Positions 1 to 17,809 of a DNA stretch of 32,000 nt are shown here, piece after piece (position 1 is the first letter of the stretch; each line of letters opens with the position of its first letter). Both the position numbers and the translations under genes were made by a program. Source of the stretch: an uncultured archaeon. GTDB taxonomy: Archaea; Asgardarchaeota; Thorarchaeia; Thorarchaeales; Thorarchaeaceae. Location of the stretch: NCBI GenBank assembly GCA_964354495.1, contig CAYHAA010000013.1, positions 58,681-90,680 on the forward strand, written 5' to 3'. Under the pieces are notes generated by a model, which worked only from the letters and a program-made list of their open reading frames with translations, had not been told where the DNA came from and did no database searches.

Positions 1-1399
1 TTCTGTTCAGCATCCACAGCATGTAGCCCACCGTGAGAAAGATACCAAAGGCAATCAGTGCCGACAGAGGGTATATCACAATAGATCCAAAGATGACCAG
101 TGCTTCTGCGATAAAGCCGCTAAAGCCAGGCAAACCAAAAGCCGCGAGTGTGGCGATTATGAACACTCCAGAAAGGCGCGGTGCTTTTGTCATAAGTCCC
201 TTGACATTAGGAATTTCCCTTGTCCCTGCACTGTATTTGAGCTGACCAGAAACAATGAACATCACGGAAATTATCGTCCCGTGAGAGAACATCATGAATA
301 TTGAACCCTGAACGGCCAAGTTTGCTGCAGCCTGAATTGCAGGATCTGCGGAGTTGTAACCAGCGGCATATGCAGCTACACCAAGCAAGACCCAAGCCAT
401 ATGATTGATCGAGGTGTACGCGACTAGGCTCTTCATGTCAGTCTGAGCCAGTGCAGTGAAAGCAGCATAGATGCACGTAAAAACAGCGGCAACTGCAAAA
501 GGAATGGCTAATCGTGCCATAGCCTCAGGTACCATCCACAAACCAAGACGGATGAATGCATACCCTCCCATCTTCAGCAGGATTCCAGCAAGAATGACAG
601 ATCCAGGTGTCGGAGCCTTCACATGTGCCCATGGAAGCCAGTTGTGAAGCGGAAAGACGGGCAATTTCACGCCTGCACCCACAAAGAGTGCAAGGGCAAA
701 TCCAATTTGAATGGTTGGATCAAGTCCAATGTTGCGTAGCGCGACCATATCGAAGGTAGGCACATGATTAACTGTGAAGCTGGAGGACATGAAGTAGAGA
801 TAGAAAAATCCCACCAACATCACAGCAGAGCCGAGGTGGGTGTAGATGAAGAACTTGATTGAGGCATGTCTGCTGCCTTCCTCACCCCACTTACCAATGA
901 TGAAGAACATGGGCACTAGAACAAGCTCCCAGAATATGAAGAATCCAATCAAATCGAATGAAACAAAGACTCCCAGCAGCCCTGTCTGCAGCAGAAGAAA
1001 CAGAGCATAGTACACATTTGCTGAATTCTTGATGTGATTCGACCCGATGGCCGCAATCCATACTACGAGGGTGGAGAGCAGGACCAAGACCATCGAGATA
1101 CCATCGACACCAAGGATGATCTCAAAGACTGGAGAATCTGTGGTTGTACCTAGTCGAGCTAAGATATAGCTCCAGGTGTGACTCAGACCGCCTGGAGCTG
1201 GACCTACTGATGGAGTGCCCAGCATCAGGAGTACGGAAAGACCCAGCTCTAGAGTTGTGATGGCCAGCGTGATGGCTCGCGCTCCCTTGTTTCCGAGGAG
1301 ATACGCTAGGAATGCGCCACCTAGAGGCATCACAAGCATTAGAACAAGGATGTTCAATGGAAGACCGTTGATTAGACCCGTGGCAAAGTCCAGCTGCAT
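1..1399 (-). CDS. nuoM: Complex I-like antiporter subunit NuoM, second copy; 3' end lies outside the window (absent from the ORF track)
   Basis: Manual translation from ATG at 1399, directly after the nuoL TAG: MQLDFATGLING...LGVDGISMVL...FFIFWELVLVPMFFIIGKWG...ASIKFFIYTHLGS...GVKLPVFPLHNWLPWAHVKAPTPGSVILAGILLKMGGY...GLPGFSGFIAE. These are NuoM motifs, not NuoN motifs. Confidence 0.93.
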   Translation of the reverse strand, partial: MQLDFATGLINGLPLNILVLMLVMPLGGAFLAYLLGNKGARAITLAITTLELGLSVLLMLGTPSVGPAPGGLSHTWSYILARLGTTTDSPVFEIILGVDGISMVLVLLSTLVVWIAAIGSNHIKNSANVYYALFLLLQTGLLGVFVSFDLIGFFIFWELVLVPMFFIIGKWGEEGSRHASIKFFIYTHLGSAVMLVGFFYLYFMSSSFTVNHVPTFDMVALRNIGLDPTIQIGFALALFVGAGVKLPVFPLHNWLPWAHVKAPTPGSVILAGILLKMGGYAFIRLGLWMVPEAMARLAIPFAVAAVFTCIYAAFTALAQTDMKSLVAYTSINHMAWVLLGVAAYAAGYNSADPAIQAAANLAVQGSIFMMFSHGTIISVMFIVSGQLKYSAGTREIPNVKGLMTKAPRLSGVFIIATLAAFGLPGFSGFIAEALVIFGSIVIYPLSALIAFGIFLTVGYMLWMLNR

Positions 1400-3601
1400 C
1401 TAGAGCACCCCCATTGTTAGAAGGCCGATGATTATCAAAAGGCCAATGCCAAAGATTACCACACTTACGTAGTCATTGATTCGCCCAGTCTGTGTTTCAA
1501 GACCTATTTCCGAGGCCTCTACGCTCTTTGTTGAAACCCCCTCTGCAAAACCATCAATGACATGGTCATCAAACCAGCGTATCTTTCTTGAAAGGGTCTG
1601 TGCAGTTCCGGCAGACTTGAAGTCAATCCCATCGATTACGGGTTCATCCACCTGGACTCGCCATACATCTGCGAAGCGAAGGAGCTTGTTTACGAACCAG
1701 TAGTAGGACTCATTGATATACCATCGATGCTTCAGGAAGTTGTACAGCTTCCGGCGGACGCCATTCTCTGGAATAACGGAGTTCGGTCTCTCTGCATTCC
1801 TTATGTAAATCCAATACGCTGGTACACCACCAAGAAGGAGAGCACCAATAGTGATTGCGAATGGGATTACTCCTGGTAGTGTGAACTTGACAACAATCAT
1901 CTCTGTGAGTATCTCGACGAACAGTTCCATCGTCATGGGGCCTTCAGAAAGGACGATTGCCTGAATGAATGGAAACACAAGGAATGCAATGATTGTGAAT
2001 CCTGCAAGAATATACAGCGGAACCATCATTGCAGGACCGGGGTCATGAGGACTGCTGTGATGCTCTTCATCATGGTGTTCCGGTTCTTTACCATGAAAGA
2101 CTATTCCCATCAGCCTTATGCTGTAGAAGATGGTACTAGCTGCTGCAAACACTGCAAGACCAAACAACAGAATACCAAATGAATATTCAACTGCAAGCTC
2201 GTAGGTGTACTCAATGATGGAGTCCTTTGACCAGAAACCAGACATCGGTGGAATCCCTGCAAGTGCGAGCACACCAATCAGCATGACCCGATAAGTCCGA
2301 GGCATGCTCATTTTCAGACCGCCCATGTTGGACATATACTTCGTATGGACAGCATGGATGACTCCGCCCGCAGCAAGGAAGAGAAGGGCTTTGAAGGCAC
2401 CATGGGACACAACATGAAGCACGCCACTGAGATACGCCTGATCATAATGACCGCTCACTGCGAGAATTCCACCTGTGCCAATTGCCAGAATCATGTAGCC
2501 AAGCTGACTCAGGGTTGAGAAAGCGAGGACCTGTTTGAGTTCGTTGGACACCATACCCATTGTTGCTGTCATAAAGGCTGTAATCGCTCCGACGGTTGCA
2601 ACGATGATGAAGAATGAGATGGCCATCTCGATGCCGAATGTCTGGAGTGCTGCGAAGCCCGACTCGGTACCAGTTTCATGAGCATGAGTCGCAGTAGCAT
2701 CCACAATGGTAACCAAGAAACGAGCGGTGATGTACACACCAGCCTTCACCATGGTCGCGGCATGAATCAGTGCAGAAACAGCTGTCGGGCCGCTCATCGC
2801 CTCGGGGAGCCACACCTGGAGGGGAACCTGACCAGATTTTCCTATTGCACCCGCAAAGATGAGTATGAGTGCTGGGAGCAGGAGACCCCAGTTGCCCATC
2901 GTACCCCACCAATTGTTGATATTACTGGCGAGGTCTGTGAATAGAAAGGATCCGGTGAACGTGAAGAGTAGGAGAATGCCGCCCAGCATGAGAGCGTCGC
3001 CAATCCTAGTGACGATGAAAGCCTTCGTGCCGCAGTGAGTGTTATACTCGCCTTCTGTCTCGAATTGGAGCAATGGATTGCTCTGTTCATAACCCGTGGG
3101 GTCTTTTTCCGGTCTATTCCGTTTGTCATTCCAGAAACCGATGAGACCATAGCTGCACAATCCCATGATCTCCCATCCGATGAAAGCAATCAGTAGGGAA
3201 CCGCTTAGGACAAGTGTCAGCATTCCCCCTCCGAACAGGAGCATCAGGAAGAAGAATCTGTTTCTATCGCCTTCATTCGCCATGTACTCAGTACTATACA
3301 CATAGATGAGGAAACACAGTGTACTTGATAGAATGGCCATAATGACCGAGAGCGGGTCTAGGAGCATCTCGAAGGGAACATAGAGACCTGGGATATTGAT
3401 CCACTCATAGTGTGGCATGTGCTCTATGCCTAGGTCCCAAAGAAGAGACCAACACAACACCATAGTCATTCCCATCAAGATAGATGGCGTCCAATCACGG
3501 AGTCTTACACTGAATCTTCCCACGAGTGGCACCAACAATGATCCAGCCAGAGGGATGACGAGGATTAGGTAATAGGGTAGACCAAGTAACATCTGACTCA
3601 C
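1400..3601 (-). CDS. nuoL: Complex I-like subunit NuoL, long form; probable start ATG 3592 after a GAGGTGA SD
   Basis: FIGWEIMGLCSYGLIGFW, KAFIVTRIGD, GKSGQVPLQVWLPEAMSGPTAVSALIHAATMVKAGVY, STLSQLGYM, HGAFKALLFL, GFWSKDSI, and a C-terminal lateral helix ending QTGRINDY plus a final TM helix. Confidence 0.96.
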   Translation of the reverse strand: MSQMLLGLPYYLILVIPLAGSLLVPLVGRFSVRLRDWTPSILMGMTMVLCWSLLWDLGIEHMPHYEWINIPGLYVPFEMLLDPLSVIMAILSSTLCFLIYVYSTEYMANEGDRNRFFFLMLLFGGGMLTLVLSGSLLIAFIGWEIMGLCSYGLIGFWNDKRNRPEKDPTGYEQSNPLLQFETEGEYNTHCGTKAFIVTRIGDALMLGGILLLFTFTGSFLFTDLASNINNWWGTMGNWGLLLPALILIFAGAIGKSGQVPLQVWLPEAMSGPTAVSALIHAATMVKAGVYITARFLVTIVDATATHAHETGTESGFAALQTFGIEMAISFFIIVATVGAITAFMTATMGMVSNELKQVLAFSTLSQLGYMILAIGTGGILAVSGHYDQAYLSGVLHVVSHGAFKALLFLAAGGVIHAVHTKYMSNMGGLKMSMPRTYRVMLIGVLALAGIPPMSGFWSKDSIIEYTYELAVEYSFGILLFGLAVFAAASTIFYSIRLMGIVFHGKEPEHHDEEHHSSPHDPGPAMMVPLYILAGFTIIAFLVFPFIQAIVLSEGPMTMELFVEILTEMIVVKFTLPGVIPFAITIGALLLGGVPAYWIYIRNAERPNSVIPENGVRRKLYNFLKHRWYINESYYWFVNKLLRFADVWRVQVDEPVIDGIDFKSAGTAQTLSRKIRWFDDHVIDGFAEGVSTKSVEASEIGLETQTGRINDYVSVVIFGIGLLIIIGLLTMGVL

Positions 3602-3602
3602 C

Positions 3603-5123
3603 TCATGGACCGAAAGCGTCTGTGAACGCCGGGACTATGACATCCAGTGCCAAGCTCGGGAATATTCCAAAGATTACAATGAGAATGCCAAGGATGACCA
3701 TCGGGATGGTCATTGATCGAGGACTCTCCTTCACGTCCGCAAGAGACTCGGGATGTGGACCCAAGAACACACGCCAGAAGAATCGCAACATATAGGCAGC
3801 ACTCAGAATCGAACTTGATGCTGCAATGATGGCTAGTAGCAGAAAACTCATATTGAGCTCCGCACCGGGGATTGGAATCGCCGCTTGGAAGCCTCCCAGG
3901 AACATCATCCATTCGCTTGCAAAACCTGAGAGGGGAGGACTGCCAGCGATGCTCATCATTCCTATCGCTGCCGCGAATGCAGTGATTGGCATCTTGTTGG
4001 AGAGACCACCCATCTTCTTGATATCGCGGAGACCTGTCTGATGGATGACAGCTCCAGCGACCATGAACAGCAGTCCCTTGGAGAATGCATGATTGATGAG
4101 ATGGAACATCCCACCAGACACTCCTGCAATTGTTGCAGTGCCCAGAGCAAAGAGTACGTATCCCATCTGCGAAACAGACGAATATGCAAGGAGCCTCTTG
4201 ATGTCCACCTGGGCGAGAGCCATGAAACCGCCGTAGAAGATTGTGATAACACCAAGTGTTGCTACGTAGAGAGCAAACTGACTTGCAACCACATCCAGAG
4301 TTAACGTGCCAAATCGCACGAGCGCGTAGGCGCCTGTCTCAATCATTGCACCGGATAGGAGAACTGAGATTGGAGTAGGTGCCTCTGCATGAACCGGTGG
4401 AAGCCACCAATGGATTGGGAATACTGCCATCTTGACCAAGAACCCGGCAGCAAGTAGTATGAAGATAATCTTGAAGATCAAGTCCCCAGTAGCTCCAATG
4501 TTCGCAAGTACAAAAGAACCACCACCGTTGGCGTACAGTAGTCCGAATCCAATAAGGATACACACTGCACCGGACTGGGTATAGAGCCAGAACTTGAGAG
4601 CTGTGCGCTTTCGAGTCTCTGGAAGTCCCCAGAATAGGATGAGGAAATAGCTGGGGACAAGCATGATTTCCCAGGCAATGAAGAATTCTATCAGGTTAGT
4701 TGCAAGCGTCACCCAAATCATGCCCATGATGAAGAACAACTGGTTGGCGAAGAAGGTCGGTTTGTTCTCCGTGTGTTCAGTGTATCCTACTGCATACACC
4801 ACTGATAGGAATCCGAGCACAACGACTGCGAGGGTGATGGGGAATGCTACGGGGTCAAGGAAGAGCCCGAACGGTTCCAGAAGCGTAGACCAGACGTATG
4901 TCTCCTCTGAGAAGCCTTCCGTCAAAAGCTCGTAGAAGGGCTGTATCATTAGAGCAGAGCCTACAAGAGAAACGCCAGTGGCAATCTTTCCCGCGCTATT
5001 ACCGATTCTGTCCTTGAAGACGTAGATGAGAAGTGCTCCTATGAACATGACAGCTAGAGAGAGTGCCATGAAGGGGAATTCAGAGAGGAAGGTCTGCATT
5101 ACCTGAACCTCCTTCCACGCCAC
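3603..5123 (-). CDS. nuoM: Complex I-like antiporter subunit NuoM, first copy; probable start ATG 5099 overlapping the nuoI TAA, after a GGAGGT SD
   Basis: FFIAWEIMLVPSYFLILFWG, ALKFWLYTQSG, FLVKMAVFPIHWWLPPVHAEAPT, KRLLAYSSVSQMGY, INHAFSKGLLF, PPLSGFASE. Confidence 0.92.
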   Translation of the reverse strand: MAWKEVQVMQTFLSEFPFMALSLAVMFIGALLIYVFKDRIGNSAGKIATGVSLVGSALMIQPFYELLTEGFSEETYVWSTLLEPFGLFLDPVAFPITLAVVVLGFLSVVYAVGYTEHTENKPTFFANQLFFIMGMIWVTLATNLIEFFIAWEIMLVPSYFLILFWGLPETRKRTALKFWLYTQSGAVCILIGFGLLYANGGGSFVLANIGATGDLIFKIIFILLAAGFLVKMAVFPIHWWLPPVHAEAPTPISVLLSGAMIETGAYALVRFGTLTLDVVASQFALYVATLGVITIFYGGFMALAQVDIKRLLAYSSVSQMGYVLFALGTATIAGVSGGMFHLINHAFSKGLLFMVAGAVIHQTGLRDIKKMGGLSNKMPITAFAAAIGMMSIAGSPPLSGFASEWMMFLGGFQAAIPIPGAELNMSFLLLAIIAASSSILSAAYMLRFFWRVFLGPHPESLADVKESPRSMTIPMVILGILIVIFGIFPSLALDVIVPAFTDAFGP

Positions 5124-5530
5124 TCTAACGGTTTCCTCTCTAGGGTTGTGATCTTATCGGGCCCGTAGATCAGGTCTCTTCTGTCGCCCTCACTAATGTC
5201 GACGACTGGAGTGTGGAATAGTGCATTGAATCGACAGGCCTCAACACAGTGCCCACAGAAGATGCAGCGAGTGTAGTCAAAGTAGAGGGCTGCATCTTTC
5301 TCGTACATTCTATCGTCCTTATCCATTCGTATCGCAACGACTGGACATGACCGAACACACTGCGCGCATGCTGTGCAATTCTGTCGGACATGGATGTGCC
5401 TTCCACGCGTCCTCTCTGGATAGATTCTGTCCTCAAATGGGTAGAAGTAGGTGAAGGGTCTCATGAAGACCTGCCTGAATGTGTGTTTCAGAATCTTGAA
5501 GATGTCACCCAGTACGCTGAAGAAACCCAT
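5099..5530 (-). CDS. nuoI: Complex I-like subunit NuoI, 2x[4Fe-4S]
   Basis: YPFEDRIYPERTRGRH, CTACAQCVRSCP, CIFCGHCVEAC; operon position. Confidence 0.95.
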   Translation of the reverse strand: MGFFSVLGDIFKILKHTFRQVFMRPFTYFYPFEDRIYPERTRGRHIHVRQNCTACAQCVRSCPVVAIRMDKDDRMYEKDAALYFDYTRCIFCGHCVEACRFNALFHTPVVDISEGDRRDLIYGPDKITTLERKPLEWRGRRFR

Positions 5531-5533
5531 TGT

Positions 5534-6700
5534 TTATGGACCTCCTAAGGGTAGCAATGCTGCCAGTCCAGGAAGATAGACTATCGCGAGCATTGCAAAT
5601 ATGACATTCAGTAGCGCAAGAGGAAGCAGATACCTCCAACAGTAGTGAACAATCTGATCTTGCCTAAGTCGTTGGAATGACGAACTGACAAGAACGAAGA
5701 AGAAGAAGGTGATGATGAACTTGATAATGAAGTTCACTGCACCAGGGAGGAAGGGCAGACCAACAGGCCCTCCCAAAAAGAGAGCGACGATTATTGCGGA
5801 GTAGAGCATCTGCTCTGCAAACTCTGCAAAGTAAGTGAGAGTGAAGTAGATACCAGTAAACTCAGTCCTCCAGCCAAAGATTATCTCAGAGTCTGCGACG
5901 GGTGCGTCAAAGGGGAACACACCAACTGATGCAATGGCGGCAATTAGGAATGTTGCAAGGTTAACAGGCAATACAACTGCAAACCAGACAGAAGTCTGTG
6001 CTTGGGCGATGCCCATGAGACTCAGAGAACCCGCAAGCATGGCAGGTCCGGCAGAAGAAACAATCATTGGAATCTCTGCAGCGAATTGATTGTTTGCCGC
6101 TCGGAATCCTCCTATGAGCGAGTACTTGCAGCCGCTGACCCAACCTGCAAGCAATGATACAACAGGAACCGCTGTCAGAAAGGCAAACACCAGGACAAGA
6201 CTCACAGAGAGGTCTGAAATATACCAGAAGTCAAAGTCCCAAGGTATGAAACAGAAAGGCAATAGTACAACCACAAGAAGGAGACAGGGTAGGAATCTGA
6301 ACATCCAGCGTTTTGCATTATCAGGGATGATAGTCTCCTTTGCTATGAGCTTGATAGCATCAGCAAACAACTGAAGTCCACCATACTTGCCGATATGAAG
6401 TGGTCCTCGTCGGTCCTGAATGCGACCCCAGAGTTTTCGTGTGAACCACACCGCCCATATGAGGGTGAGAACGACAAAGATGAGACCCGGAAACAAGACA
6501 GCTCGAAACAAGAACATGAAGTTCGCTGGTGAGAACACCATTGCCCAGAGCCATTCGACGATGCCCCAGGCCCAGTAGAAGACACCCAGGATGAGATTGA
6601 TTATCCATTGCAGTACGCCATAGATCCAATCGGGAATCCCCGCAAGCCAGGTAAAGAAATCGAACTGCAACATCACACCTCCATTCATCGGTCCCACCAT
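5534..6700 (-). CDS. nuoH: Complex I-like subunit NuoH; probable start ATG 6673 after a GGAGGTG SD
   Basis: RKLWGRIQDRRGP, GGLQLFADAIKLIAKE, PFDAPVADSEIIFGWRTEFTG, FQRLRQDQ; polytopic membrane protein. Confidence 0.95.
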   Translation of the reverse strand: MVGPMNGGVMLQFDFFTWLAGIPDWIYGVLQWIINLILGVFYWAWGIVEWLWAMVFSPANFMFLFRAVLFPGLIFVVLTLIWAVWFTRKLWGRIQDRRGPLHIGKYGGLQLFADAIKLIAKETIIPDNAKRWMFRFLPCLLLVVVLLPFCFIPWDFDFWYISDLSVSLVLVFAFLTAVPVVSLLAGWVSGCKYSLIGGFRAANNQFAAEIPMIVSSAGPAMLAGSLSLMGIAQAQTSVWFAVVLPVNLATFLIAAIASVGVFPFDAPVADSEIIFGWRTEFTGIYFTLTYFAEFAEQMLYSAIIVALFLGGPVGLPFLPGAVNFIIKFIITFFFFVLVSSSFQRLRQDQIVHYCWRYLLPLALLNVIFAMLAIVYLPGLAALLPLGGP

Positions 6701-7821
6701 CCAGGATACGGGTCCAAGCTTCCGAATATCACAATGAAGTCTGCAAACTTCGCGCCAGGGACTAAGTCCTTCAAGGCGTAGTAAGATGCAAAACAGGGTC
6801 CACGTATCTTTGCGCGATATGCACTCTGTGCCTTATCTTGAGTCTTGAGCCACAGTGATGTGATGCCTCGTGTTCCTTCTACGCGACCATATGCCTCTCC
6901 TGCAGGAAGTCTGTTCACTTTGGCACGAGCTTTGGGATCGATAATAGGACCTTCGGGTATCTGTGGTAATAGCTGCTTAATGATCTCTACAGAGGTCTCT
7001 GCCTCCTTGAATCTTTGCTCCATCCTGTCCAGAGCATCACTCTCTCCGGGATGATCTGGATTCTCAGTTATGGGTACTTCCCAATCACACATATTGTAGG
7101 CAAGATTCGGGTCGGGAGCATCTTTCCTGAGGTCCATAGGGATTCCGCATGCCTTAATCGGAGGCCCGCTCAGTCCCCATTTGAGACCCTGTCTTGCAGT
7201 GTATTGCCCTATGCCCTTGGTTCTCGCTCTGAAAGTAGGACTTCCCATCTGCATATCTCGGAACTTGGGCAGTCTGTCCTCAAACCTCTTGACGGCTCTA
7301 TTGATTTGTTTCAAGACCTTCTCATTAAAGTCGAACCTTGTTCCACCAGGAGTTGAGAACGATACAGTGTGTCGCGAACCTGTTAACTCTTCAAAGGCAT
7401 CAAGGGTATACTCTCGGTCGACCCAAGGCCAGAGAGCCATTGTAAAGAATCCAAGCTCTGCATTGAACTGTCCCCACCAGAATTGTATACTGTGCAGACG
7501 GGACAGCTCCATCATGATGGTCCTCATGACCTTCGCTCGTTCTGGCACCTCAAGCTCTGCAATCTTCTCAACTGCAGCAATAAAGGGATACTCAGCAAGA
7601 AATGCTTCAAGCATGCACATTCTTTCCATAACCAGGGATCCTTGCCTGAAGGTCCTGTACTCGAGGACCTTCTCTGCAGAACGGTGAAAGTACCCGGCAT
7701 TTGGGTCACATTTGACAATGTAGTCGCCGACCAAGGTCAGTTTTGTCGCCCATCCATGAGCAGAAACATGTTGGGGTCCGAACCAGACGTCTATGGCCTC
7801 ATCAAGAATGTTAGGGCTCAC
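6685..7821 (-). CDS. nuoD: Complex I-like subunit NuoD (no NiFe ligands)
   Basis: WFGPQHVSAHG, GYFHRSAEK, TGSRH...PGG, GEAYGRVEGTRG, YRAKIRGP, C-terminal SLDPYPGWWDR; neither hydrogenase CxxC pair is present. Confidence 0.93.
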   Translation of the reverse strand: MSPNILDEAIDVWFGPQHVSAHGWATKLTLVGDYIVKCDPNAGYFHRSAEKVLEYRTFRQGSLVMERMCMLEAFLAEYPFIAAVEKIAELEVPERAKVMRTIMMELSRLHSIQFWWGQFNAELGFFTMALWPWVDREYTLDAFEELTGSRHTVSFSTPGGTRFDFNEKVLKQINRAVKRFEDRLPKFRDMQMGSPTFRARTKGIGQYTARQGLKWGLSGPPIKACGIPMDLRKDAPDPNLAYNMCDWEVPITENPDHPGESDALDRMEQRFKEAETSVEIIKQLLPQIPEGPIIDPKARAKVNRLPAGEAYGRVEGTRGITSLWLKTQDKAQSAYRAKIRGPCFASYYALKDLVPGAKFADFIVIFGSLDPYPGWWDR

Positions 7822-10366: not shown

Positions 10367-10900
10367 CTACTCATTTGGACCAGTAGATGTAGGATCAATA
10401 GCATCAGCAGGTTTCTCGGGTTTTGTTTCAGTCTTAGGTGCCGCTTCTTCCGCAGGTTTTGGCGCACCACCATAATGGAGTGACCTTACATCCAACATGC
10501 CTGGAGAGTGACTCTCTTCGCGAGTATGCATCACCGAGAGACCTCCAGCAGTCAGTACTGAACCTCCAAGGCCCCAGGCCGAGAGATACAGTGTAGTCCC
10601 AACTGCAGGGAGAGCATTCACAAATTCATCAACAAAGATAACGAAGAAGAATCCAACAACAATCGATAGTGCCATCATTAGGCTCTTTCCTTTACCTCTC
10701 GCAGGTCGCAAATACCCAACTAGCAGGAAGATCATCAATAGGGAAATCCCGCTTAGCAGAGCAAAGGCGCTTCCAATGACCAGCACCGATTCCGGCATCA
10801 GAAAGCCAAGATAGATGAAATTGAAGATGAACGATGACAAAATGACTATGCCTAGCCAGAGCATGCAAAACGGGTCGCTATCTTGTCGAATCGACATCAC
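10367..10900 (-). CDS. Hypothetical 4-TM membrane protein with a Pro/Ala/Glu/Lys-rich tail, coupled to the FAD-NuoB fusion gene
   Basis: Start overlaps the fusion's TGA (GTGATG at 10895-10900); four hydrophobic segments; tail APKPAEEAAPKTETKPEKPA. Confidence 0.8.
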   Translation of the reverse strand: MMSIRQDSDPFCMLWLGIVILSSFIFNFIYLGFLMPESVLVIGSAFALLSGISLLMIFLLVGYLRPARGKGKSLMMALSIVVGFFFVIFVDEFVNALPAVGTTLYLSAWGLGGSVLTAGGLSVMHTREESHSPGMLDVRSLHYGGAPKPAEEAAPKTETKPEKPADAIDPTSTGPNE

Positions 10901-12837
10901 TGTATCATCCCCATCGCATCCTGGTTCTCATATCTCCTTTGCCAGTGAGTCGTGCCAGCCCGTATCTTATTCTGAAGAATCAGATGTGCTCGAATGAAAT
11001 CTGCTGGCTTCGGAGGACATCCAGGCAGGTAGACGTCGACAGGTACTACCTTGTCAGGCGGTGTCATCAGGCTGTATCCCTCCCAGAAGAGGCCTCCTGA
11101 AGCAACGCATTGACCAAAGGCAATCACATATTTGGGCTCAGGCATCTGCTCGTAAATCCTCCTGAGCCGCGGTGCCATCTTCTTGGTGAGCGAACCCGAG
11201 ATCCACAGAACGTCGGTCTGTCTCGGACCAAACAGGGGTAGCATGCCAAATCGCTCAAAGTCCCATCGAGGAGCTATTCCTGCAGCACCATCCACCATGC
11301 AACACCCAATACCATACTGCATTGGCCAGGGACTATATGCCCTTCCCCATCTGAGTACCCACTTCAGCGGCGGTACATTCTGCAACCATTTCAGCAAAAT
11401 GGGAGCAATCCGACCCCAACCGTTTCTGAACAGATCGAAGAAGATCCACATGAAGTATTTCCCTATTCTCAAAATAAATGGAAGCCAGTAGGCGAATATC
11501 TTCCCGGGATTCGAGATCTCGTTCCTGTCCCATTGGAGTTTCGCTGCTCGAATTCGGGACAGTCGTTCCTTTCCAAAGTATTGATACGCGTAGTTTGCAA
11601 ACCAAATTCCTGTGGAGTGCACATGCCCTCCGTGACGCTGTGCAATTTTGAATATGACAAAGCTCTGTGACCACGAGAGCATGTAGAAGTGCCTTCGCTC
11701 ATCTTCAAGGAAGTAGCCCATCATAGTTACTCCGGTCTTTGAGGTGACGTAGCCGTCGATTCCAGCTCTCGCAGAGGCTTGTTCAAACTGGAAGTCATCA
11801 AGAATTGCAACGAGATTCTCGAGAGGGGCAAAAGCTTGACCGACTACTAGGGTTGGCCCTCTCTTCTTAATCTTCATTGGATAGTAGCGTAGCTGCCATT
11901 CATGTTCTGCAAAATCATCATCATAGATGCGCCCTCGATACAGTTCAGTGACTTCGCGGACAACTCCTAACCCCTCTTCAATCTCTTCCTCGTTGCCCTC
12001 ATACGCAATCATTAACGAACAATGATTGGCAGGTATCGGGAATGGCTTCTTGCCCTCCCAACTGGCCTTTTTGAGGTCAGTATACTTTGACTCTTCGAAT
12101 AATATCGTGTATGGGAGTGGGCCATCTTCGAGTATTTTCTCAATTGCAAGGACCATTTGGTAGTTTTCCTCAAAACTGGAAACAATTACCTTCATCGGTG
12201 TGAGAGGTTTGATCTTAAGAGTGGCTTTGGTGATGATACCCAGAATTCCCTCAGTGTCACAGAAGAGGCCAAAATCCTTTGTCTTGACTGTTTTTCCAGT
12301 TGGCAGAACCACTTCGAGCTCGACTATGTTCTCATTGATCTTCCCGTACTTCAGCGAACCAATGCCATCGCCGCCCTGGGCAATCCAGCCGCCCACAGTC
12401 GCTGAGATGCCAGATGATGGATAGCATCGTATATCCAGACCCTTCCTGTTCAACGCAAACTGAAGATTTGCCCAAGAGATTCCTGGTTCAACCGTGACGG
12501 TGAGATTCTCACTCTCAACTTCAAGAATCCTGTCCATTCGACGCATATCAACAATGATTCCTCCTTTTCGGGGTATAGCGCCGCCATATCCTGAGGTTCC
12601 TGCCGCTCTGGGCACAAGGGGGATTTTGTGTTTTCGCGCAATCTCATAGAGCGCCTGAACCTCTTCAGGAGTCAAGGGTTGAACAAGGGCATCGGGTTTT
12701 GTGTTCATGAGCCAACCAACCTGCTTCGGAAGAGAACCAACATCTTGTCCAAACAGAATCAGCTCATGCTTCGCAGTAATCAAGCGGTCTCCAAAAATTT
12801 TGCCTAGTTCTTCAATCAGCTTTTGATTAAGGACCAT
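10897..12837 (-). CDS. Fusion protein: FAD-linked oxidoreductase (GlcD/D-LDH, FAD_binding_4 + FAD-oxidase_C type) plus NuoB
   Basis: N-terminal part: PDALVQP, LVPRAAGTSGYGGAIP, IIVDMRRMDRILEV, VTVEPGI, SATVGGWIAQGGDGIGSLKYG, TEGILGIITKATLK, ending ISNPGKIF (~11494). C-terminal part: RWGRAYSPWP, GIGCC, PRQTDVLWISGSLTKKMAPRLRRIYEQMPEPKYVIAFGQCVASGG, VPVDVYLPGCPP. Single uninterrupted 646-aa frame. Confidence 0.93.
   Translation of the reverse strand: MVLNQKLIEELGKIFGDRLITAKHELILFGQDVGSLPKQVGWLMNTKPDALVQPLTPEEVQALYEIARKHKIPLVPRAAGTSGYGGAIPRKGGIIVDMRRMDRILEVESENLTVTVEPGISWANLQFALNRKGLDIRCYPSSGISATVGGWIAQGGDGIGSLKYGKINENIVELEVVLPTGKTVKTKDFGLFCDTEGILGIITKATLKIKPLTPMKVIVSSFEENYQMVLAIEKILEDGPLPYTILFEESKYTDLKKASWEGKKPFPIPANHCSLMIAYEGNEEEIEEGLGVVREVTELYRGRIYDDDFAEHEWQLRYYPMKIKKRGPTLVVGQAFAPLENLVAILDDFQFEQASARAGIDGYVTSKTGVTMMGYFLEDERRHFYMLSWSQSFVIFKIAQRHGGHVHSTGIWFANYAYQYFGKERLSRIRAAKLQWDRNEISNPGKIFAYWLPFILRIGKYFMWIFFDLFRNGWGRIAPILLKWLQNVPPLKWVLRWGRAYSPWPMQYGIGCCMVDGAAGIAPRWDFERFGMLPLFGPRQTDVLWISGSLTKKMAPRLRRIYEQMPEPKYVIAFGQCVASGGLFWEGYSLMTPPDKVVPVDVYLPGCPPKPADFIRAHLILQNKIRAGTTHWQRRYENQDAMGMIQ
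10960..11370 (-). other. nuoB: NuoB domain (N2 [4Fe-4S] subunit) within the fusion gene
   Basis: Tandem Cys-Cys at 11299-11304 (C512/C513), GQC..SGG and PGCPP together give all four N2 ligands; the YEQMPEPKYVIA signature is present. Confidence 0.93.
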
Positions 12838-12885
12838 GAGTCCACTCTCCAGCTCATGAGCAGAGCCGCTTACAAATCGAGGCTT

Positions 12886-12906
12886 GGAAAGCAGGAAGAT
12901 AAAAAC
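12886..12906 (-). promoter_or_regulatory. Upstream element of the FAD-NuoB fusion gene, GTTTTTATCTTCCTGCTTTCC
   Basis: Plus strand reads GGAAAGCAGGAAGATAAAAAC; 19/21 identical to 9892-9912; 49-69 nt upstream of ATG 12837. Confidence 0.6.
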
Positions 12907-13041: not shown

Positions 13042-14274
13042 GTGACGATGGACTTTCCAACACTGAATGAATATGACCTTCAGAAGTACGCATTCACTTG
13101 CGCGCAATGTGGTTTTTGTCAGGTAGGTCATGGTGCTTGTCCCACCTACAAGGTGAAACGGCGGGACACATATTCTGGTAAGGGTAAGATGCTCTTGACC
13201 CGGGCATTGATGCAAGGACGAATTAGACCGTCCGAGGGTCTGGAAGGTCTAAGGGATGGGATCTTTGGCTGTACTCTATGTGGAGGTTGTGAAGAAGTCT
13301 GCCAAGTGGATATTCCGTTTGTGAAGCTCTATCAAGTGATGCGCTCGGAGTTCATGAAGCGGAACATGTGGCCAGAGAAGCTGCAGGTAGCAAGGGACAC
13401 AGTCTTGAAGAACTTCAATATTCAGGGCCAGGCACAAATGGATAGGATAGAGGGATGGTCCTATTGGACTCCTAACGAGGATGAATTGCTGGGCAAACAA
13501 GGGACTCCGGCAAAGACTGCCTTCTTCATTGGATGTGCATCTTCGTTTCGAGGCGTTTCGATTCAAGCCACAATTGCCATGACACTGATCTTGGACAAGA
13601 TTGGAGCAGAGTATACCGTGCTGGGTGAAGAGGAATACTGCTGCGGCGCTCCTCTTATCATGTCGGGAGATTTCGACGGAGCGAGAGTCCTCGCTGAACA
13701 CAATATTCAGAAGTATAGAGAACTTGGCGTTGAAACCATAATAACCAATTGTCCGGGCTGCTATAAGATGTGGGCTCATGAATATCATGAGTTCTTAGGT
13801 ATTGATCATGGTTTTGAGATTCGCTATGGCTACGAATACCTTGCTGACCTTCTTGATAAAGGAAGACTGACAGGTTTCAATACTCCTCTCAATGCCACAG
13901 TAACGTTCCATGATGGTTGCGACGCAGGTAGGAATACGGGATTTTATGAAGAACCAAGAAAAGTGCTTGAGAACATTCCGGGTGTGATATTTGAAGAGCT
14001 TCCGCATAACAGAGCAAACTGCTATTGTTGCGGTTCTGGTGGCGTACTAAGAGCGATTGATGCTGAATTCGCCAATCAAATCAATAGGCTCAAGGTAGAA
14101 GATATCGAAGCCACGAATGCTCAAATCGTAGCATCTGGTTGTCCATCTTGTGTAGATTTCATGCACTCTCAACTTCCACAGGCAGGTTCGAGTAAGACTG
14201 TGAAAGATCTTGCTGTTCTTGTCGCTCAGGCTCTTGGTCTATCATGGGACGGACTCACTGAGATTTACGGCTGA
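13042..14274 (+). CDS. GlcF/HdrD-like Fe-S oxidoreductase (2x[4Fe-4S] plus two CCG domains)
   Basis: CAQCGFC...CP, CTLCGGCEEVC, FFIGC, EEYCCG, TNCPGC, FHDGC, CYCCGSGG, SGCPSC. Confidence 0.92.
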   Translation: MTMDFPTLNEYDLQKYAFTCAQCGFCQVGHGACPTYKVKRRDTYSGKGKMLLTRALMQGRIRPSEGLEGLRDGIFGCTLCGGCEEVCQVDIPFVKLYQVMRSEFMKRNMWPEKLQVARDTVLKNFNIQGQAQMDRIEGWSYWTPNEDELLGKQGTPAKTAFFIGCASSFRGVSIQATIAMTLILDKIGAEYTVLGEEEYCCGAPLIMSGDFDGARVLAEHNIQKYRELGVETIITNCPGCYKMWAHEYHEFLGIDHGFEIRYGYEYLADLLDKGRLTGFNTPLNATVTFHDGCDAGRNTGFYEEPRKVLENIPGVIFEELPHNRANCYCCGSGGVLRAIDAEFANQINRLKVEDIEATNAQIVASGCPSCVDFMHSQLPQAGSSKTVKDLAVLVAQALGLSWDGLTEIYG

Positions 14275-14379: not shown

Positions 14380-15432
14380 TCAGCTGTTGAGAGATGCTGA
14401 AGCTGCTGCTTTCGCTTTGCGTTCTGATTGATAGTAGAACACAAGGGACATCGCAAGACATAGAGCGCCCCCGACAAAGACGTAGAGAAGAGGTGATGCC
14501 AATCCAATCAACAAGTAAGACAGTGATAGAAAGAGCCCCGTGAACAAGTGATTCGTGACCGTCGCCGCACATGCGGGTAACATCTGAAGCGATTGATCAT
14601 AGTGTGCTAGTACGTGCTTGCTGGCCATCACTGCGATAGGCACAGTAGAAAGCCCAACTACTGTATACCAGTTTGTCAGGCCGAAAAAGATGGGTAGGAG
14701 TATTGAGAGATATAGGGCCACCATCAAGACGACGTACCCTTTCGAGGCACGTTTTCGGCCGAGACGCACTACTGCAGTCAGTTTTCCAACAGACTTGTCA
14801 GCCTCATAGTCGGGAAACTCATTGATATATAGAACAGCTGTGATTAGAATCGCGACTGGAATAGATGGGAAGACTGCTTCCCAAGCAAGCACCTGAGTTT
14901 GAACGAAGTAGGCTCCGAGAGTCATAAGAACGCCAAAATTGAGCCCAATGAAGACCTCCCCAATGCCTCTATTCACTAATCTAAAAGGCGGAGCAGTATA
15001 GAAGAAACCCGAGCACACACCAATGACTCCAAGGATTAGGACTTCTATGCCTCTTGTGTAGGCAAGATACAGGCCAATGCCGCCCCCAAGAGAGAAGAAT
15101 ACCATTGACTCTAGGAAGACCTCTCCCGGAGACATCAGCCCCCTTTGGATCATCCTGCTTCCCCCGGTGAAAGGACGCACATACTCCACATTGATATCGT
15201 CAGTCCCACTTCTGTGGTCGAAATAGTCGTTGGCAACATTAGACCCGATGTGGATGAACACACCTGCAGCTAGGGTCAAAAGAAAGATGTCGAGAAGGAA
15301 TGTGCCTGTTGATGCCCAAGCCACGCACGTTCCAATGACTACAGGTACAATGGCACCCGTCAGGAAGGGGGCACGCATTTCGGCCAGCCAGGTTCTGACT
15401 CTCGAAGGTCTTACATCCATCAAATCAATCAC
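14380..15432 (-). CDS. menA: 1,4-dihydroxy-2-naphthoate polyprenyltransferase (MenA/UbiA family)
   Basis: NVANDYFDHRSGTDD, RPFTGGSRMIQ, FFYTAPPFRL..RGIGE, YINEFPDYEADKSVGKLT..VRLG. Confidence 0.88.
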   Translation of the reverse strand: MIDLMDVRPSRVRTWLAEMRAPFLTGAIVPVVIGTCVAWASTGTFLLDIFLLTLAAGVFIHIGSNVANDYFDHRSGTDDINVEYVRPFTGGSRMIQRGLMSPGEVFLESMVFFSLGGGIGLYLAYTRGIEVLILGVIGVCSGFFYTAPPFRLVNRGIGEVFIGLNFGVLMTLGAYFVQTQVLAWEAVFPSIPVAILITAVLYINEFPDYEADKSVGKLTAVVRLGRKRASKGYVVLMVALYLSILLPIFFGLTNWYTVVGLSTVPIAVMASKHVLAHYDQSLQMLPACAATVTNHLFTGLFLSLSYLLIGLASPLLYVFVGGALCLAMSLVFYYQSERKAKAAASASLNS

Positions 15433-15554: not shown

Positions 15555-16592
15555 ATGTCAGAACGCCCATCCGTCCGCCATGAGTATGGACTAAACACAT
15601 CAGAACCTTGGCCATCTGATACTTCGTGTTTTCTAGAGAATGAGAAGATAAGGACAAGAATCAACCTCATTAATGAAGAGATCAAACGTTGCCTATTGGA
15701 TGAAGATGGAGAACCGAAACAACTCTATGAATCAGTCCGTAGCCTAGTCCTTGCAGGTGGCAAGAGACTAAGGTCCCTTTTGCTGATACTGAGTTGCGAA
15801 GCAGTGGGTGGGGCTCTCGTGGACGCATTGCCTTTTGCAGTCGCCACAGAGTTCATACAGACCGCTAGCTTGATCCATGATGATATCATTGATGAAGATG
15901 ATTTGCGTCGTGGAGTTGAAACCATGCACAAGAAGTATGGAGAGAAGATGGCAATAATCTCCGGAGACCTACTTGTCGGCCTGGCAATCAAGTTGATTGG
16001 AGAGAGAGCAACTCCCCAACTTCTATCCAGTGTTGCCACAGCTGGTATCCGAATGTGTGAAGGCGAAGCTGCCGACCTCTTGATGAGTCAAAACAGAGCA
16101 CATTCTTACACGACAAAGGCAGCGCTTGATATTATTAGAATGAAGACAGTCGCGTTCATGACATACGCTGCGAAGGTAGGAGCGGTTCTGGGGCATGCGA
16201 CTGAGGAGCAATCGGAAGTTCTAACCAAATATGCCGAAGAACTTGGTTACTCATTCCAAATTCGTGACGATATACTCGATATAATCGCCACTCAAAATGA
16301 AACAGGAGAGACAGGTTTGTCCGATTTGAAAGGTAATGTGAGTAATTTCGTTCTTGCGCATGCCATAGAGAGCTGTTCTCCGAAAGGAAGGAAGCAACTC
16401 ATTCAGAATTTGGACGAGGGTGATGTAGACTCTGCCTTTGAACATATCAAGGAAATGAAGTCTATTGAATACTCCACTGAGACTGCCAAGGAGTTCGTGG
16501 AATCTGCCAAGGACAGAATTCGCGGATCCAACTTCTCAAATGAAGAGTTGCTGATGCTCCTCGCAGATTTCGCTGTGAAACGGCAATACTAA
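15555..16592 (+). CDS. Trans-polyprenyl diphosphate synthase, probably longer than C20; true start may be downstream
   Basis: GGKRLR, first Asp-rich motif TASLIHDDIIDEDDLRRG, GEAADL, KT, second motif FQIRDDILD. Confidence 0.93.
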   Translation: MSERPSVRHEYGLNTSEPWPSDTSCFLENEKIRTRINLINEEIKRCLLDEDGEPKQLYESVRSLVLAGGKRLRSLLLILSCEAVGGALVDALPFAVATEFIQTASLIHDDIIDEDDLRRGVETMHKKYGEKMAIISGDLLVGLAIKLIGERATPQLLSSVATAGIRMCEGEAADLLMSQNRAHSYTTKAALDIIRMKTVAFMTYAAKVGAVLGHATEEQSEVLTKYAEELGYSFQIRDDILDIIATQNETGETGLSDLKGNVSNFVLAHAIESCSPKGRKQLIQNLDEGDVDSAFEHIKEMKSIEYSTETAKEFVESAKDRIRGSNFSNEELLMLLADFAVKRQY

Positions 16593-16603
16593 TTCAGCTC
16601 ACA

Positions 16604-17809
16604 CTACATGAACTGGTTCAGCAGCCTGACAAAGGTCTTCGCCGCCATATCCACAGGAAGTGGCAGGCGGCACCGAATAAGTGGCTCAAGAAATCTGACT
16701 CCAGCTAGCCGCATACATATGTCAGTAACCGCGTCTGATGGCATAACTAGATCTGCAACTCTAAGGACTCTTAGTGCAGTCACTAACTCATGACCAAACT
16801 CAGCTCTCCATAGTTCTTCGTAGGTCGACAGAGGTTCGTTCTCTGTCAGGTACCTAACAACAGATTCGCCTGCGATACGGCCTCCGCATAATGCAGTCGG
16901 AATTCCTCCACCATTTGATGCCATCACATGCCCAGCTGCATCCCCGACTAGCAATGCATTTTGATGCCACGTTTGGTGAAGGGGACCGCCCATAGGGATT
17001 ATTGCACCTATTCTTCGAATGACCTTCGCGCTCTCGACCCTGTGTGCTAGGAGAGAAAACACAAACCGTTCTAGATACTTCTTGAGAGGGGTTGCATCAC
17101 TACCGACACTTCGTCTCATACCAAAACCGATGTTGGCAAGCCCTTCACCCCTAGGAATGACCCAAGCATAACCGCCTGGTGCTATCCTCTCACCAAAATA
17201 CATCTCTACCACAGACGGTTCCACATCGAAATCATTCATTACATATTGGAGAGCTGGGCTGAGGTCTGACTCGGGGTGAATGAATCTCGGTCCCATCGAG
17301 CGAGCCACAATGGATCTAGGTCCATCGGCTCCTATGATAGCCTTAGCAGTCATTTTGTGTGTCGTACTCTGAGTTCTGACAGTCAGTTCATTCTTGCCTT
17401 GTCGTTTCAATACCGTTGAATGAAGCTGAAGCTCAGCACCCGCATCTATGGCGTTCTGCGCAAGTTGTTTGTCCAATCTCGACCGGTCAACAATGTTGGC
17501 TTCAAAGGGAAACTCAAATGTACTGCCATGTGGTGAAATCAGGCGAATGAATTTCGTCCTGTTCGTGATGAATTCCCTTGGCACATCGACAGCTCTAGGC
17601 ATCATTTTGGAGCGGGGAAACAGTCTTCGTGTTTCTGACTGCGTGGGTATGATCTCGCCACACTGGACTGGCGTGCCCGCTATAGACCTTCGGTCTAGAA
17701 TGAGTGTTCGTAGATTGCTCCTAGCGACTACCTGAGCTGCAGAAGACCCTGCTGGTCCAGCTCCAACTACTGCAACATCATAAGTTTGACTCACGAGTAG
17801 CCACTCCAT
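16604..17809 (-). CDS. Geranylgeranyl/prenyl reductase family FAD oxidoreductase
   Basis: DVAVVGAGPAGS, PVQCGE, IIGADG..S, APGGYAWVIP, ANIGFG, LLVGDAAGHV...GGGI. Confidence 0.92.
   Translation of the reverse strand: MEWLLVSQTYDVAVVGAGPAGSSAAQVVARSNLRTLILDRRSIAGTPVQCGEIIPTQSETRRLFPRSKMMPRAVDVPREFITNRTKFIRLISPHGSTFEFPFEANIVDRSRLDKQLAQNAIDAGAELQLHSTVLKRQGKNELTVRTQSTTHKMTAKAIIGADGPRSIVARSMGPRFIHPESDLSPALQYVMNDFDVEPSVVEMYFGERIAPGGYAWVIPRGEGLANIGFGMRRSVGSDATPLKKYLERFVFSLLAHRVESAKVIRRIGAIIPMGGPLHQTWHQNALLVGDAAGHVMASNGGGIPTALCGGRIAGESVVRYLTENEPLSTYEELWRAEFGHELVTALRVLRVADLVMPSDAVTDICMRLAGVRFLEPLIRCRLPLPVDMAAKTFVRLLNQFM

Follow-up and report, generated by a model that had tools for sequence, protein, structure and literature searches.

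In the Methanomassiliicoccales, an Fpo-like complex of 11 subunits together with HdrD has been proposed to act as a ferredoxin:heterodisulfide oxidoreductase. We compared this and other described redox systems with a locus from an uncultured archaeon of the Thorarchaeota, contained in a stretch of 32,000 nucleotides (hereafter the window; contig positions 58681-90680 of a 3.3-Mb genome that is 97.7% complete). Proteins of the window show 73-96% identity to ones assigned to Candidatus Thorarchaeota in public sources. The locus encodes a complex I-type pump, a fusion protein that joins a flavin adenine dinucleotide (FAD) domain to the NuoB subunit, an iron-sulfur (FeS) protein with two CCG domains, and three enzymes of prenyl metabolism. 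Common to the locus and the Fpo-like system are a headless complex I-type pump and a soluble 2x[4Fe-4S]+2xCCG protein, with ferredoxin as the presumed donor. The locus differs in the GlcD-fold FAD domain fused to NuoB, in the CCG protein being the split half of a FAD+FeS+CCG enzyme, in the linked prenyl-quinone genes, and in a host that is no methanogen.

The cyanobacterial and chloroplast NDH-1 likewise has an eleven-subunit core, lacks an NADH module and probably takes its electrons from ferredoxin at NuoI. In contrast to the locus it keeps the quinone-binding Tyr, has accessory subunits of its own, and shows neither a flavoenzyme fusion nor the M-L-M layout of antiporter-like genes. The sulfane-sulfur reductase MBS/Mbx of Pyrococcus (PDB 6u8y) gives the best PDB match of the NuoD subunit; both read R-x-C-x-x-E instead of RxCGxC and have lost the NiFe site, whereas the membrane arm of the locus is of the complex I type (NuoA, J, K, L with lateral helix, M, N) and not Mrp-like. 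Dehydrogenases with FAD, FeS and CCG domains (E. coli YdiJ; the glycolate oxidase GlcDEF) have the same domain set, which in the locus is split over two genes. The FAD half is joined by its C-terminus to NuoB and not to the Fe-S/CCG half, and its Thorarchaeota subfamily lacks the H-x6-H and E-H residues of LDHD, LctD, GlcD and YdiJ (the last compared for H-x6-H only). Finally, a fourth antiporter-like subunit from a second NuoM-like gene and an insertion of ~26 residues in the NuoL lateral helix are shared with the 2M complex I that PMC9040806, citing Chadwick et al. 2018, describes for Nitrospira and other bacteria. Unlike in the 2M complexes, the extra subunit of the locus is MrpA/MbhH-like with Glu at the Lys position of transmembrane helix 8 (TM8), the nuo genes run A-J-K-C-D-H-I-M-L-M-N while nuoB stands apart from the operon and is fused to a flavoenzyme, NuoEFG is missing, and NuoD has no quinone Tyr.

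Our literature searches found no paper describing a FAD-NuoB fusion or this locus. We tentatively favor the explanation, with a chance that we rate slightly short of even, that one dedicated prenylated carrier serves both a pump with five ion routes, probably linked to ferredoxin, and a quinone-linked FAD/FeS/CCG oxidoreductase tethered to the pump.

Gene content and the complex I-type pump

The genes of the window were annotated by Pfam and NCBIfam profile scans. The features are as follows.

2..1399 (-): nuoM2, canonical NuoM-type antiporter-like subunit, running off the left edge (PF00361; TIGR01972, 381 bits)
1400..3601 (-): nuoL, 733 amino acids, elongated lateral helix (PF00662 and PF00361; PDB alignment to NdhF and Nqo12)
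3603..5123 (-): nuoM1, extra antiporter-like subunit, MrpA/MbhH-like (PDB matches)
5099..5530 (-): nuoI, 2x[4Fe-4S] (Fer4 Pfam matches)
5534..6700 (-): nuoH (PF00146, 281.8 bits)
6685..7821 (-): nuoD, divergent (best PDB match MbsL, 6u8y_L)
7818..8366 (-): nuoC (PF00329)
8350..8658 (-): nuoK (PF00420)
8658..9302 (-): nuoJ (PF00499)
9305..9802 (-): nuoA (PF00507)
9892..9912 (-): 21-nt TATA-containing element, copy 1, upstream of nuoA
9991..10356 (+): orf121, small membrane protein with several transmembrane segments (hydropathy)
10367..10900 (-): orf177, small membrane protein with several transmembrane segments and a disordered tail (hydropathy); its start overlaps the stop of the fusion gene
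10897..12837 (-): FAD-NuoB fusion gene, 646 amino acids (FAD_binding_4, FAD-oxidase_C and Oxidored_q6)
10897..11352 (-): NuoB domain of the fusion, residues 496-646 (PF01058; NF005012, 175 bits, and TIGR01957, 167 bits, both over cut-off)
11353..11502 (-): linker of the fusion, residues 446-495, amphipathic, Trp/Phe-rich, two predicted helices
11503..12837 (-): FAD domain of the fusion, residues 1-445, GlcD/LDHD/ADPS fold (PF01565, 140.7 bits; PF02913, 32.9 bits)
12886..12906 (-): 21-nt element, copy 2, upstream of the fusion gene
13042..14274 (+): CCG protein of the HdrD/GlcF/TfrB-C type, 410 amino acids (PF13183 (Fer4_8) and PF02754 twice)
14380..15432 (-): MenA-like prenyltransferase of the UbiA family (TIGR00751)
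15555..16592 (+): trans-polyprenyl diphosphate synthase (PF00348)
16604..17809 (-): prenyl reductase of the GGR family (TIGR02032, 244 bits; PF22578)

The profile annotation thus places in one block every component that an earlier, sequence-only reading of this DNA had named, namely the nuo genes, two small membrane genes, the fusion, the CCG protein, menA, the synthase and the reductase. That reading had also proposed to look for nuoN to the left of base 1. In the flanking DNA (L004), nuoM2 ends ~170 nt left of the window and its stop is overlapped by nuoN (L004:17004-18512, minus strand; 502 amino acids, Proton_antipo_M), so that the nuo operon is complete. Its order on the minus strand, across the window and the left flank, is nuoA-J-K-C-D-H-I-M1-L-M2-N, without nuoB. 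The CCG gene is divergent from the fusion gene, with 204 nt between them. No Pfam or NCBIfam match was obtained for orf121 and orf177.

All 11 core subunits of complex I (Nuo A, B, C, D, H, I, J, K, L, M and N) are encoded, each with a Pfam match over cut-off and NuoB as the C-terminal domain of the fusion, and NuoI has eight Cys in two CxxCxxCxxxC motifs. The nuoH gene is the sole PF00146 match in the genome. Neither the 97.7%-complete genome nor the locus has a match to PF01512 (Complex1_51K; NuoF/RnfC), which leaves the NADH-oxidizing N-module unrepresented, and no FpoF-type gene is among the Pfam-scanned genes of the locus, the rest of the genome not having been searched for FpoF.

The extra antiporter-like subunit expected from the earlier reading is real. 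The best PDB matches of nuoM1 are MrpA (7qru_A), MbhH (6cfw_H) and a subunit of MBS (6u8y_X), and nuoM2 has the canonical TM8 Lys motif ILLKMGGY. In NuoL, a VIDG motif occurs at residues 655 and 681, i.e. 26 residues apart, which corresponds to a duplication within the lateral helix; the NuoL insertion of 2M complexes has the same length, ~26 residues (PMC9040806). With two NuoM-like genes and this insertion the pump is of the 2M type, as a statement of architecture and not of descent from the bacterial 2M clade. Asgard nuo clusters with a free-standing NuoB and the usual B-C-D-H-I-J-K order can have the M-L-M layout as well, so that the suggestion of the extra antiporter as an adaptation to electron input from a flavin is not supported.

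The NuoD subunit keeps the quinone-site His (H22, corresponding to H38 of T. thermophilus and H95 of Y. lipolytica). It retains one of the four NiFe Cys, with RMCMLE (one Cys) and DPYPGWWDR (none) at the places of RxCGxC and DPCxxC, and is thereby set apart from group 4 [NiFe] hydrogenases. NuoD proteins are 70-97% identical within the Thorarchaeota and 47-49% identical to those of a sister clade of assemblies named Heimdallarchaeota, in which the same J-K-C-D-H-I-M-L-M-N order is observed; identity to all others is at most 37%.

Conservation of the block in Asgard archaea

Synteny was analyzed in ~19.5 kb around the fusion gene from 17 genomes of 12 genera, with the proteins of the window mapped onto each locus. 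The gene block recurs in these 17 loci, all from one family of Thorarchaeota, and the arrangement nuo | orf121 | orf177-fusion | CCG is retained in 16 of them; the genomes are kin, and such counts overstate independence. The nuoA gene lies 1.1-7 kb from the fusion gene in all loci except one (16/17; in G164 the distance is 24 kb on the same contig and strand), orf177 is directly downstream of the fusion in 16 of the 17, and orf121 is syntenic in 14 Thorarchaeota loci. The CCG gene lies within 5 kb of the fusion in 16 loci, being directly divergent from it in 11. The menA, polyprenyl synthase (pps) and prenyl reductase (ggr) genes abut the CCG gene in 11 loci and are found 8-29 kb away on the same contig in others. 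Judged by gene order, the locus is a predicted functional unit that has been conserved. The proposal that the modules belong together thus passes a synteny check, both in the 17 loci of 12 genera and, as described below, in a second Asgard lineage.

Two peculiar loci were encountered on the way. In one (L133; G152:C5:88250-107800), the fusion, at residue 435, and nuoD, at residue ~275, are each split into two frames, by sequencing errors or by decay of the complex. In two others from genus g10 (L119 and L130; G124 and G299), an insertion of ~6-7 kb lies between orf121 and the orf177/fusion pair, inside an otherwise conserved block.

The distribution of the components was surveyed in 301 Asgard genomes from 30 families, the family of the window comprising 16 genera. 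A single frame that covers both halves of the fusion occurs only in this family, in at least 46 genomes and 12 of the 16 genera. NuoD proteins at least 70% identical to that of the window are present in exactly these 12 genera, the remaining four having none. The co-occurrence expected by the sequence-only reading therefore holds genus by genus for the fusion and the orthologous NuoD, but not for the MenA-like genes, which are distributed more widely than the complex (15 of 16 genera). We rejected the idea that the fusionless genera are devoid of any complex I-like enzyme, since a PF00146 gene is carried by all 16 genera and only the orthologous complex is missing; the fusionless genera, among them g4, g5 and g13, have different clusters of the complex I family with a free NuoB, at 27-40% identity.

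A related block outside the family was found in assemblies named Borrarchaeum. It consists of antiporter-like genes (M, M, L, M, N), small open reading frames (ORFs), the FAD protein, the CCG protein, an amine-oxidase-like flavoprotein, UbiA, GGR and a polyprenyl synthase. The FAD protein of this block (527-532 amino acids, 36-38% identical) is unfused and ends in a hydrophobic helix of its own, a transmembrane anchor, and the UbiA protein is 42% identical to the MenA-like protein of the window. We considered whether orf177 or orf121 could be homologous to a 156-aa membrane protein of such a locus and did not adopt the idea, the BLASTP E-values being 0.19 and 0.53. As read from gene content and order, this block is the strongest independent support for one conserved unit. 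One Borrarchaeum-type locus (L154, JGI 3300028897) has five antiporter-like genes in a row (495, 526, split nuoL 336+381, 489 and 484 amino acids), one more than the window.

In genus g13, an operon menA - CCG - FAD (the latter of 498-499 amino acids) is located beside pps, ggr and mutS. The orthologous NuoD was not found in this genus, where only an Mbh-like cluster is present. The g13 FAD protein keeps the whole linker and ends ...PPLKWI, inside the sequence derived from the N-terminus of NuoB. Most simply, this gene would be what remains of the fusion, in truncated form, after the complex itself had been lost. Its genomic setting indicates that the FAD-CCG-MenA module is autonomous and persists without the pump.

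The flavoenzyme, its predicted CCG partner and the proposed prenylated carrier

The NuoB domain of the fusion has the four Cys of an N2-type cluster (C512, C513, C577 and C607) in a CC...GxC...GCPP context. It is the only complex I NuoB of the genome; two other Oxidored_q6 genes belong to group-3 hydrogenase clusters, one with NAD-binding and Fer4_22 subunits and the other with the composition HdrA-MvhD-MvhG-MvhA. In an AlphaFold2 (AF2) model of the fusion, pLDDT exceeds 80 over most of the FAD domain, and the linker forms helices at residues 451-472 and 474-485; pLDDT is low for the linker and the NuoB domain, and we drew no geometry from the model for that reason. The last ~12 residues of the linker align with the N-terminus of a free-standing Asgard NuoB (LQNVPPLKWVLRWGR in the fusion versus VQNIGLVKKLQGWGR). 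A complex prediction, limited in input size, for NuoI, the NuoB domain (residues 480-646) and the CCG protein scored 0.00, which speaks neither for nor against binding.

By domain content (FAD_binding_4 and FAD-oxidase_C), the FAD domain has the fold of the 2-hydroxyacid dehydrogenases. A Foldseek structure search gave a TM-score of 0.84 to mouse LDHD and of 0.65-0.70 to alkyl-DHAP synthase (ADPS), and LctD was also matched. Compared with LDHD, LctD and glycolate oxidase/D-LDH, however, the profile of the subfamily has the metal-binding H-x6-H replaced ('glvvskdevvl' versus GHVGDGNFH) and the catalytic E-H pair replaced ('ystG' versus EHGIG). E. coli YdiJ retains GHVDAGVLH, and the Thorarchaeota proteins read GYVTSKTGVTMMGYF at the same place. 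The score to TIGR00387 is 137 bits against a cut-off of 568. Invariant residues of the subfamily itself are E313-W314, K324, D379-x-R381, G410 and NPGK. Because the metal-binding and catalytic residues are lost in the whole subfamily, a 2-hydroxyacid substrate, and with it the 2-hydroxyacid-like donor considered in the sequence-only reading, is not supported, although it remains conceivable.

The CCG protein combines two CxxCxxCxxxC motifs, which supply eight Fe-S Cys, with a pair of CCG domains, and belongs to the HdrD/GlcF/GlpC/TfrB-C group of CCG proteins, with no NCBIfam equivalog model reaching its cut-off. Its residues 13-407 align with residues 497-878 of a 1023-aa FAD+FeS+CCG protein of Thermincola potens (E 2e-58), and the nearest homologues of the FAD domain beyond the relatives in Thorarchaeota and other Asgard archaea are proteins of ~1020 amino acids with FAD_binding_4, FAD-oxidase_C, Fer4 and CCG domains. 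The alignments identify the FAD domain and the CCG protein as the predicted split halves of one enzyme that is fused elsewhere in prokaryotes.

The partners of this FAD family vary. A relative from Hydrothermarchaeota (L152, GCA_046760505.1) is an 867-aa NrfD-FAD fusion, 40% identical in the FAD domain, whose gene neighbors encode two multihaem cytochromes c, a four-cluster Fe-S protein, a CCG protein and a UbiE-like methylase. In E. coli K-12 (NC_000913.3:1765222-1768685), ydiJ, a FAD+FeS+CCG D-2-hydroxyglutarate dehydrogenase, overlaps menI (DHNA-CoA hydrolase). Together the NuoB, NrfD, transmembrane-anchor and menI contexts show a family that sits on membrane or quinone modules, often beside genes of quinone biosynthesis. 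In another Asgard family, a locus (L145; G034:C175:12000-23589) carries a free nuoA-nuoB pair divergent from nuoJ-K-N, with a NuoB 57% identical to the domain of the fusion and a GlcD-like / CCG / GlcD-like trio 2 kb away; the association of flavoenzymes with nuo genes may thus be wider in Asgard archaea.

The MenA-like gene of the locus scores 123 bits with TIGR00751 (cut-off 102), while nine other matching MenA models of NCBIfam remain below their cut-offs. Counting the locus copies, the genome encodes three UbiA-family proteins, two polyprenyl synthases, of which the one in the locus has Ala-Ser before its first DDxxD, and at least nine GGR paralogues over cut-off. A UbiE/MenG-type methylase (186 bits, cut-off 158) is encoded elsewhere in the genome. 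We considered whether the trio could be housekeeping lipid genes (GGPP synthase, DGGGP synthase and GGR) and rejected this, as the UbiA gene scores 172 bits with MenA models and 28 bits with the GGGP-prenyltransferase model. Since the genome has further copies elsewhere (one synthase gene, two UbiA genes and eight or more GGR genes), the locus trio is a specialized set and not part of lipid housekeeping.

Neither a molybdopterin oxidoreductase nor an NrfD gene was found in the genome; haem-copper and bd oxidases were not searched. Another locus (L139; G000:C3:16500-27000) has genes for a fumarate reductase resembling TfrA/TfrB (521 bits with the TfrB model, above its cut-off) beside those for the alpha and beta subunits of class-I fumarate hydratase (FumAB), and the predicted TfrAB-like enzyme is a possible sink for quinol or thiol electrons.

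Upstream of both nuoA and the fusion gene is a 21-nt element, GTTTTTATC(A/T)T(G/C)CTGCTTTCC, whose copies are identical at 19 of 21 positions. Two matches were found in the window and none in 100 shuffles, and a 20-mer of the element has no further copy in the 3.3-Mb genome. Both copies are kept in the closest relatives. The element was rejected as a family-wide regulatory signal because beyond the closest relatives, in other genera, only its TATA-like half GTTTTTAT is conserved.

Further genes flank the locus. Directly after the nuo operon, on the opposite strand (L004:16262-16933), lies a gene for a Ras/Roc-family small GTPase of 223 amino acids, a eukaryote-like Asgard signature protein. 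To the right, positions 17849-18862 (-) of the window encode a 337-aa ORF with no Pfam or NCBIfam family, with N- and C-terminal hydrophobic segments and many N-x-T/S sites, which may be a surface glycoprotein. Positions 18918-21518 (+) encode a full five-domain MutS, which adjoins ggr-pps-menA also in genus g13 (64-65% identity), so that this adjacency is old. Two overlapping ORFs at 21539-22351 and 22302-22943 (-), each one half of an MFS_1 transporter, may represent a frameshifted or split MFS gene.

Explanations for the locus and their implications

According to the explanation we prefer, the locus would specify two membrane redox machines, physically joined, that operate on one dedicated prenylated quinone-type carrier. 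The first would be a twelve-subunit complex I-type pump without NuoEFG (NuoA, H, J, K; N, M2, M1, L; C, D, I, B), with a soluble electron partner, most likely ferredoxin, that binds at NuoI. The second would be a peripheral FAD / 2x[4Fe-4S] / CCG oxidoreductase that moves electrons between a substrate and presumably the same quinone. In solved structures of complex I, the N-terminus of NuoB is at the membrane surface. Joined to this terminus through the amphipathic membrane-surface linker, the FAD half would keep the second machine parked beside the pump. The MenA-like protein, the polyprenyl synthase and GGR, with the UbiE/MenG-like methylase encoded elsewhere, may build the side chain of the carrier and saturate it. 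The net function would be that of a ferredoxin:X oxidoreductase or, in reverse, a route from XH2 to ferredoxin, with the quinone as a short-range shuttle and perhaps ~five ions moved per two electrons. The sequence-only reading had argued that a 2-hydroxyacid-like donor could not drive such a pump, and the arithmetic of this argument is sound: by textbook potentials, electron transfer from a donor at -190 mV to an acceptor at -75 mV cannot pay for five ions per two electrons, and transfer from ferredoxin at ~-450 mV to a menaquinone-like carrier can.

Several observations weigh against this explanation. The altered channel residues pointed out by the sequence-only reading were found, at both channel and quinone-site positions. 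NuoD has Met70 (ERMCMLE versus the canonical DRxDY) at the position of the quinone-binding Tyr (Y87/Y144), which is lost in the Heimdallarchaeota-named sister clade too and kept in all canonical NuoD proteins of the alignment. NuoM1 has Glu at the TM8 Lys position (AMIETGAY), invariant in all Thorarchaeota genera and in the sister clade. Compared with E. coli, NuoH reads FTRK for GERR (Thr for Glu) and PVAD for PEAE (Val/Asp). In NuoK, a conserved charged position is altered, the protein reading AAH where the canonical second Glu motif is AAE; NuoA also differs at a conserved acidic position. With Met70 and the substitutions in NuoH, NuoK, NuoA and M1, quinone reduction at the usual site is not assured. 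The identity of the carrier is affected as well. PF02621 (MqnA/D) is found in 0 of 81 genomes of the family, MqnC and MenD have no match in the 97.7%-complete genome, and the best MenB-like match reaches 147 bits against a cut-off of 343. The known pathway for a naphthoquinone head group was thus not found among the enzymes searched (MqnA/D, MqnC, MenB and MenD; MenF, MenC, MenE and MenH were not searched), and the head group of the carrier is salvaged or made by a route not yet known. Menaquinone as the acceptor, assumed by the sequence-only reading, is therefore not supported by either the pathway or the NuoD site, despite the MenA-like and UbiE/MenG-like genes. In genera g4 and g11 (L149-L151; G233, G037 and G128), a pps + menA-like pair, 41-48% identical, is part of a carotenoid-type cluster with CrtD/CrtI, an LyeJ-like prenyltransferase, CruF, CrtB and FixC, which weakens the label 'MenA'; the cluster itself looks like a set of bacterioruberin-like genes in Thorarchaeota. 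The fusion is kept in all 12 genera and none of them has a free NuoB, which suggests a role tighter than co-location. The related genomes are non-independent samples. Finally, ferredoxin is only a probable partner of the pump, and the expression and assembly of the complex are predicted from the genes.

Alternatively, the flavin could be the electron input of the pump. The FAD domain would then oxidize an organic donor and pass electrons through the [4Fe-4S] clusters of the CCG protein to NuoI and N2, in place of NuoEFG, which would make the complex a pumping donor:quinone oxidoreductase that needs a low-potential donor or reduced coupling. The fusion being the only NuoB, the lack of a NuoF-type module in the genome, the strict conservation of the fusion wherever this complex occurs, and a linker of ~50 residues that could let the FAD domain reach NuoI all point in this direction. 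In its favor, too, heterodisulfide-reductase-like peripheral domains have been reported on other Asgard Mbh-like complexes (preprint 10.1101/2024.07.04.601786). Against it, the module occurs without the complex in g13 and with a separate membrane anchor in the Borrarchaeum-named assemblies, both of which are easier to reconcile with a self-contained enzyme linked to quinone than with an N-module substitute feeding N2, as in the flavin input that the sequence-only reading had envisaged, and the residues that define 2-hydroxyacid dehydrogenases are gone. In addition, the membrane-side N-terminus of NuoB is far from the distal cluster of NuoI in solved structures, and the span from -190 to -75 mV is not feasible for five ions per two electrons. 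We regard flavin input as unlikely, although a serious contender.

A bolder reading goes further. The locus would encode an Asgard-specific respiratory machine, a complex I-type pump with five ion routes and no canonical quinone site. Through the fusion, the pump would be hard-wired to a flavoenzyme of the GlcD/ADPS fold without metal and to an HdrD-like CCG protein, the two forming the true exit or entry of electrons, with a prenylated carrier from a head-group pathway not yet known. It would be a ferredoxin:X oxidoreductase of an undescribed kind, at work in archaea related to the eukaryotes. This, too, we consider unlikely.

A free quinone pool may be dispensed with altogether, in a machine analogous to the proposed Fpo-like + HdrD system of Methanomassiliicoccales. 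Electrons would pass from ferredoxin through NuoI and N2 to a bound carrier and on to CCG/FAD, reducing a disulfide or an organic acceptor. Such a scheme draws on the NuoD without canonical Tyr and without NiFe ligands, with its best PDB match to MbsL of the sulfane-sulfur reductase MBS, on the HdrD/TfrB-like character of the CCG protein, and on the HdrA-MvhD-MvhG-MvhA cluster of the genome. It is also in line with the missing head-group pathway and with the molybdopterin oxidoreductase and NrfD that were not found (oxidases of the haem-copper and bd types lying outside that search). However, the MenA-like, UbiE-like, synthase and GGR genes are conserved with the module in two lineages, which points to a real prenylated carrier, VAO/GlcD-fold flavoenzymes normally oxidize their substrates, and the membrane arm, with NuoA/J/K and a lateral helix on L, is of the complex I and not of the Mrp/Mbs type. 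The scheme is in our judgment rather improbable.

Somewhat more doubtful again is reverse electron transport, in which FAD/CCG would transfer electrons from an organic donor to the quinone and the five-site pump would use the ion gradient to push quinol electrons to ferredoxin for the Wood-Ljungdahl pathway or biosynthesis. Backward operation has been proposed for extra-antiporter complexes in Nitrospira and 'Ca. Manganitrophus' (PMC9040806). Relatives of the same architecture are donor:quinone dehydrogenases, e.g. E. coli YdiJ as annotated, and no other route from a mid-potential donor to ferredoxin was found in the genome, in which the RnfC domain was not detected. The cost would be ~five ions per two electrons with no evident high-yield respiration to meet it, Asgard nuo clusters commonly have the M-L-M layout, whether or not they carry the fusion, and direction is not readable from sequence.

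Least likely, and very improbable, is that the genes are uncoupled neighbors, the fusion serving only assembly, stoichiometry or anchoring of an unrelated flavoenzyme and the isoprenoid genes serving lipids or pigments: the carotenoid clusters of g4 and g11, the wider distribution of MenA-like genes (15 of 16 genera) and the many GGR paralogues would suit it, but the block has stayed together in two lineages whose proteins are 36-42% identical, the presence of the fusion strictly follows that of the orthologous NuoD from genus to genus, the fusion is the sole NuoB, and related FAD proteins are repeatedly attached to quinone modules.

The Thorarchaeota are abundant Asgard archaea of sediments whose energy conservation has been inferred from genomes only. 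The locus encodes the only complex of the complex I family found in this genome, in which no NuoF/RnfC domain was detected. Our preferred explanation, of two joined machines on one carrier, raises the questions of what substrate is used by a widespread GlcD-family branch that lacks the metal site and is attached to membrane or quinone modules in Thorarchaeota and two other archaeal lineages, what the quinone of Thorarchaeota is and how it is made, and what allows a complex I homologue to function when the conserved quinone-binding tyrosine is missing. If it is true, a new module for electron input or output would be added to the complex I scaffold, besides NuoEFG, FpoF and the docking of ferredoxin, and the Thorarchaeota would conserve energy by a pump that has a flavin/Fe-S/CCG enzyme of its own attached and works with a quinone reserved for the two.

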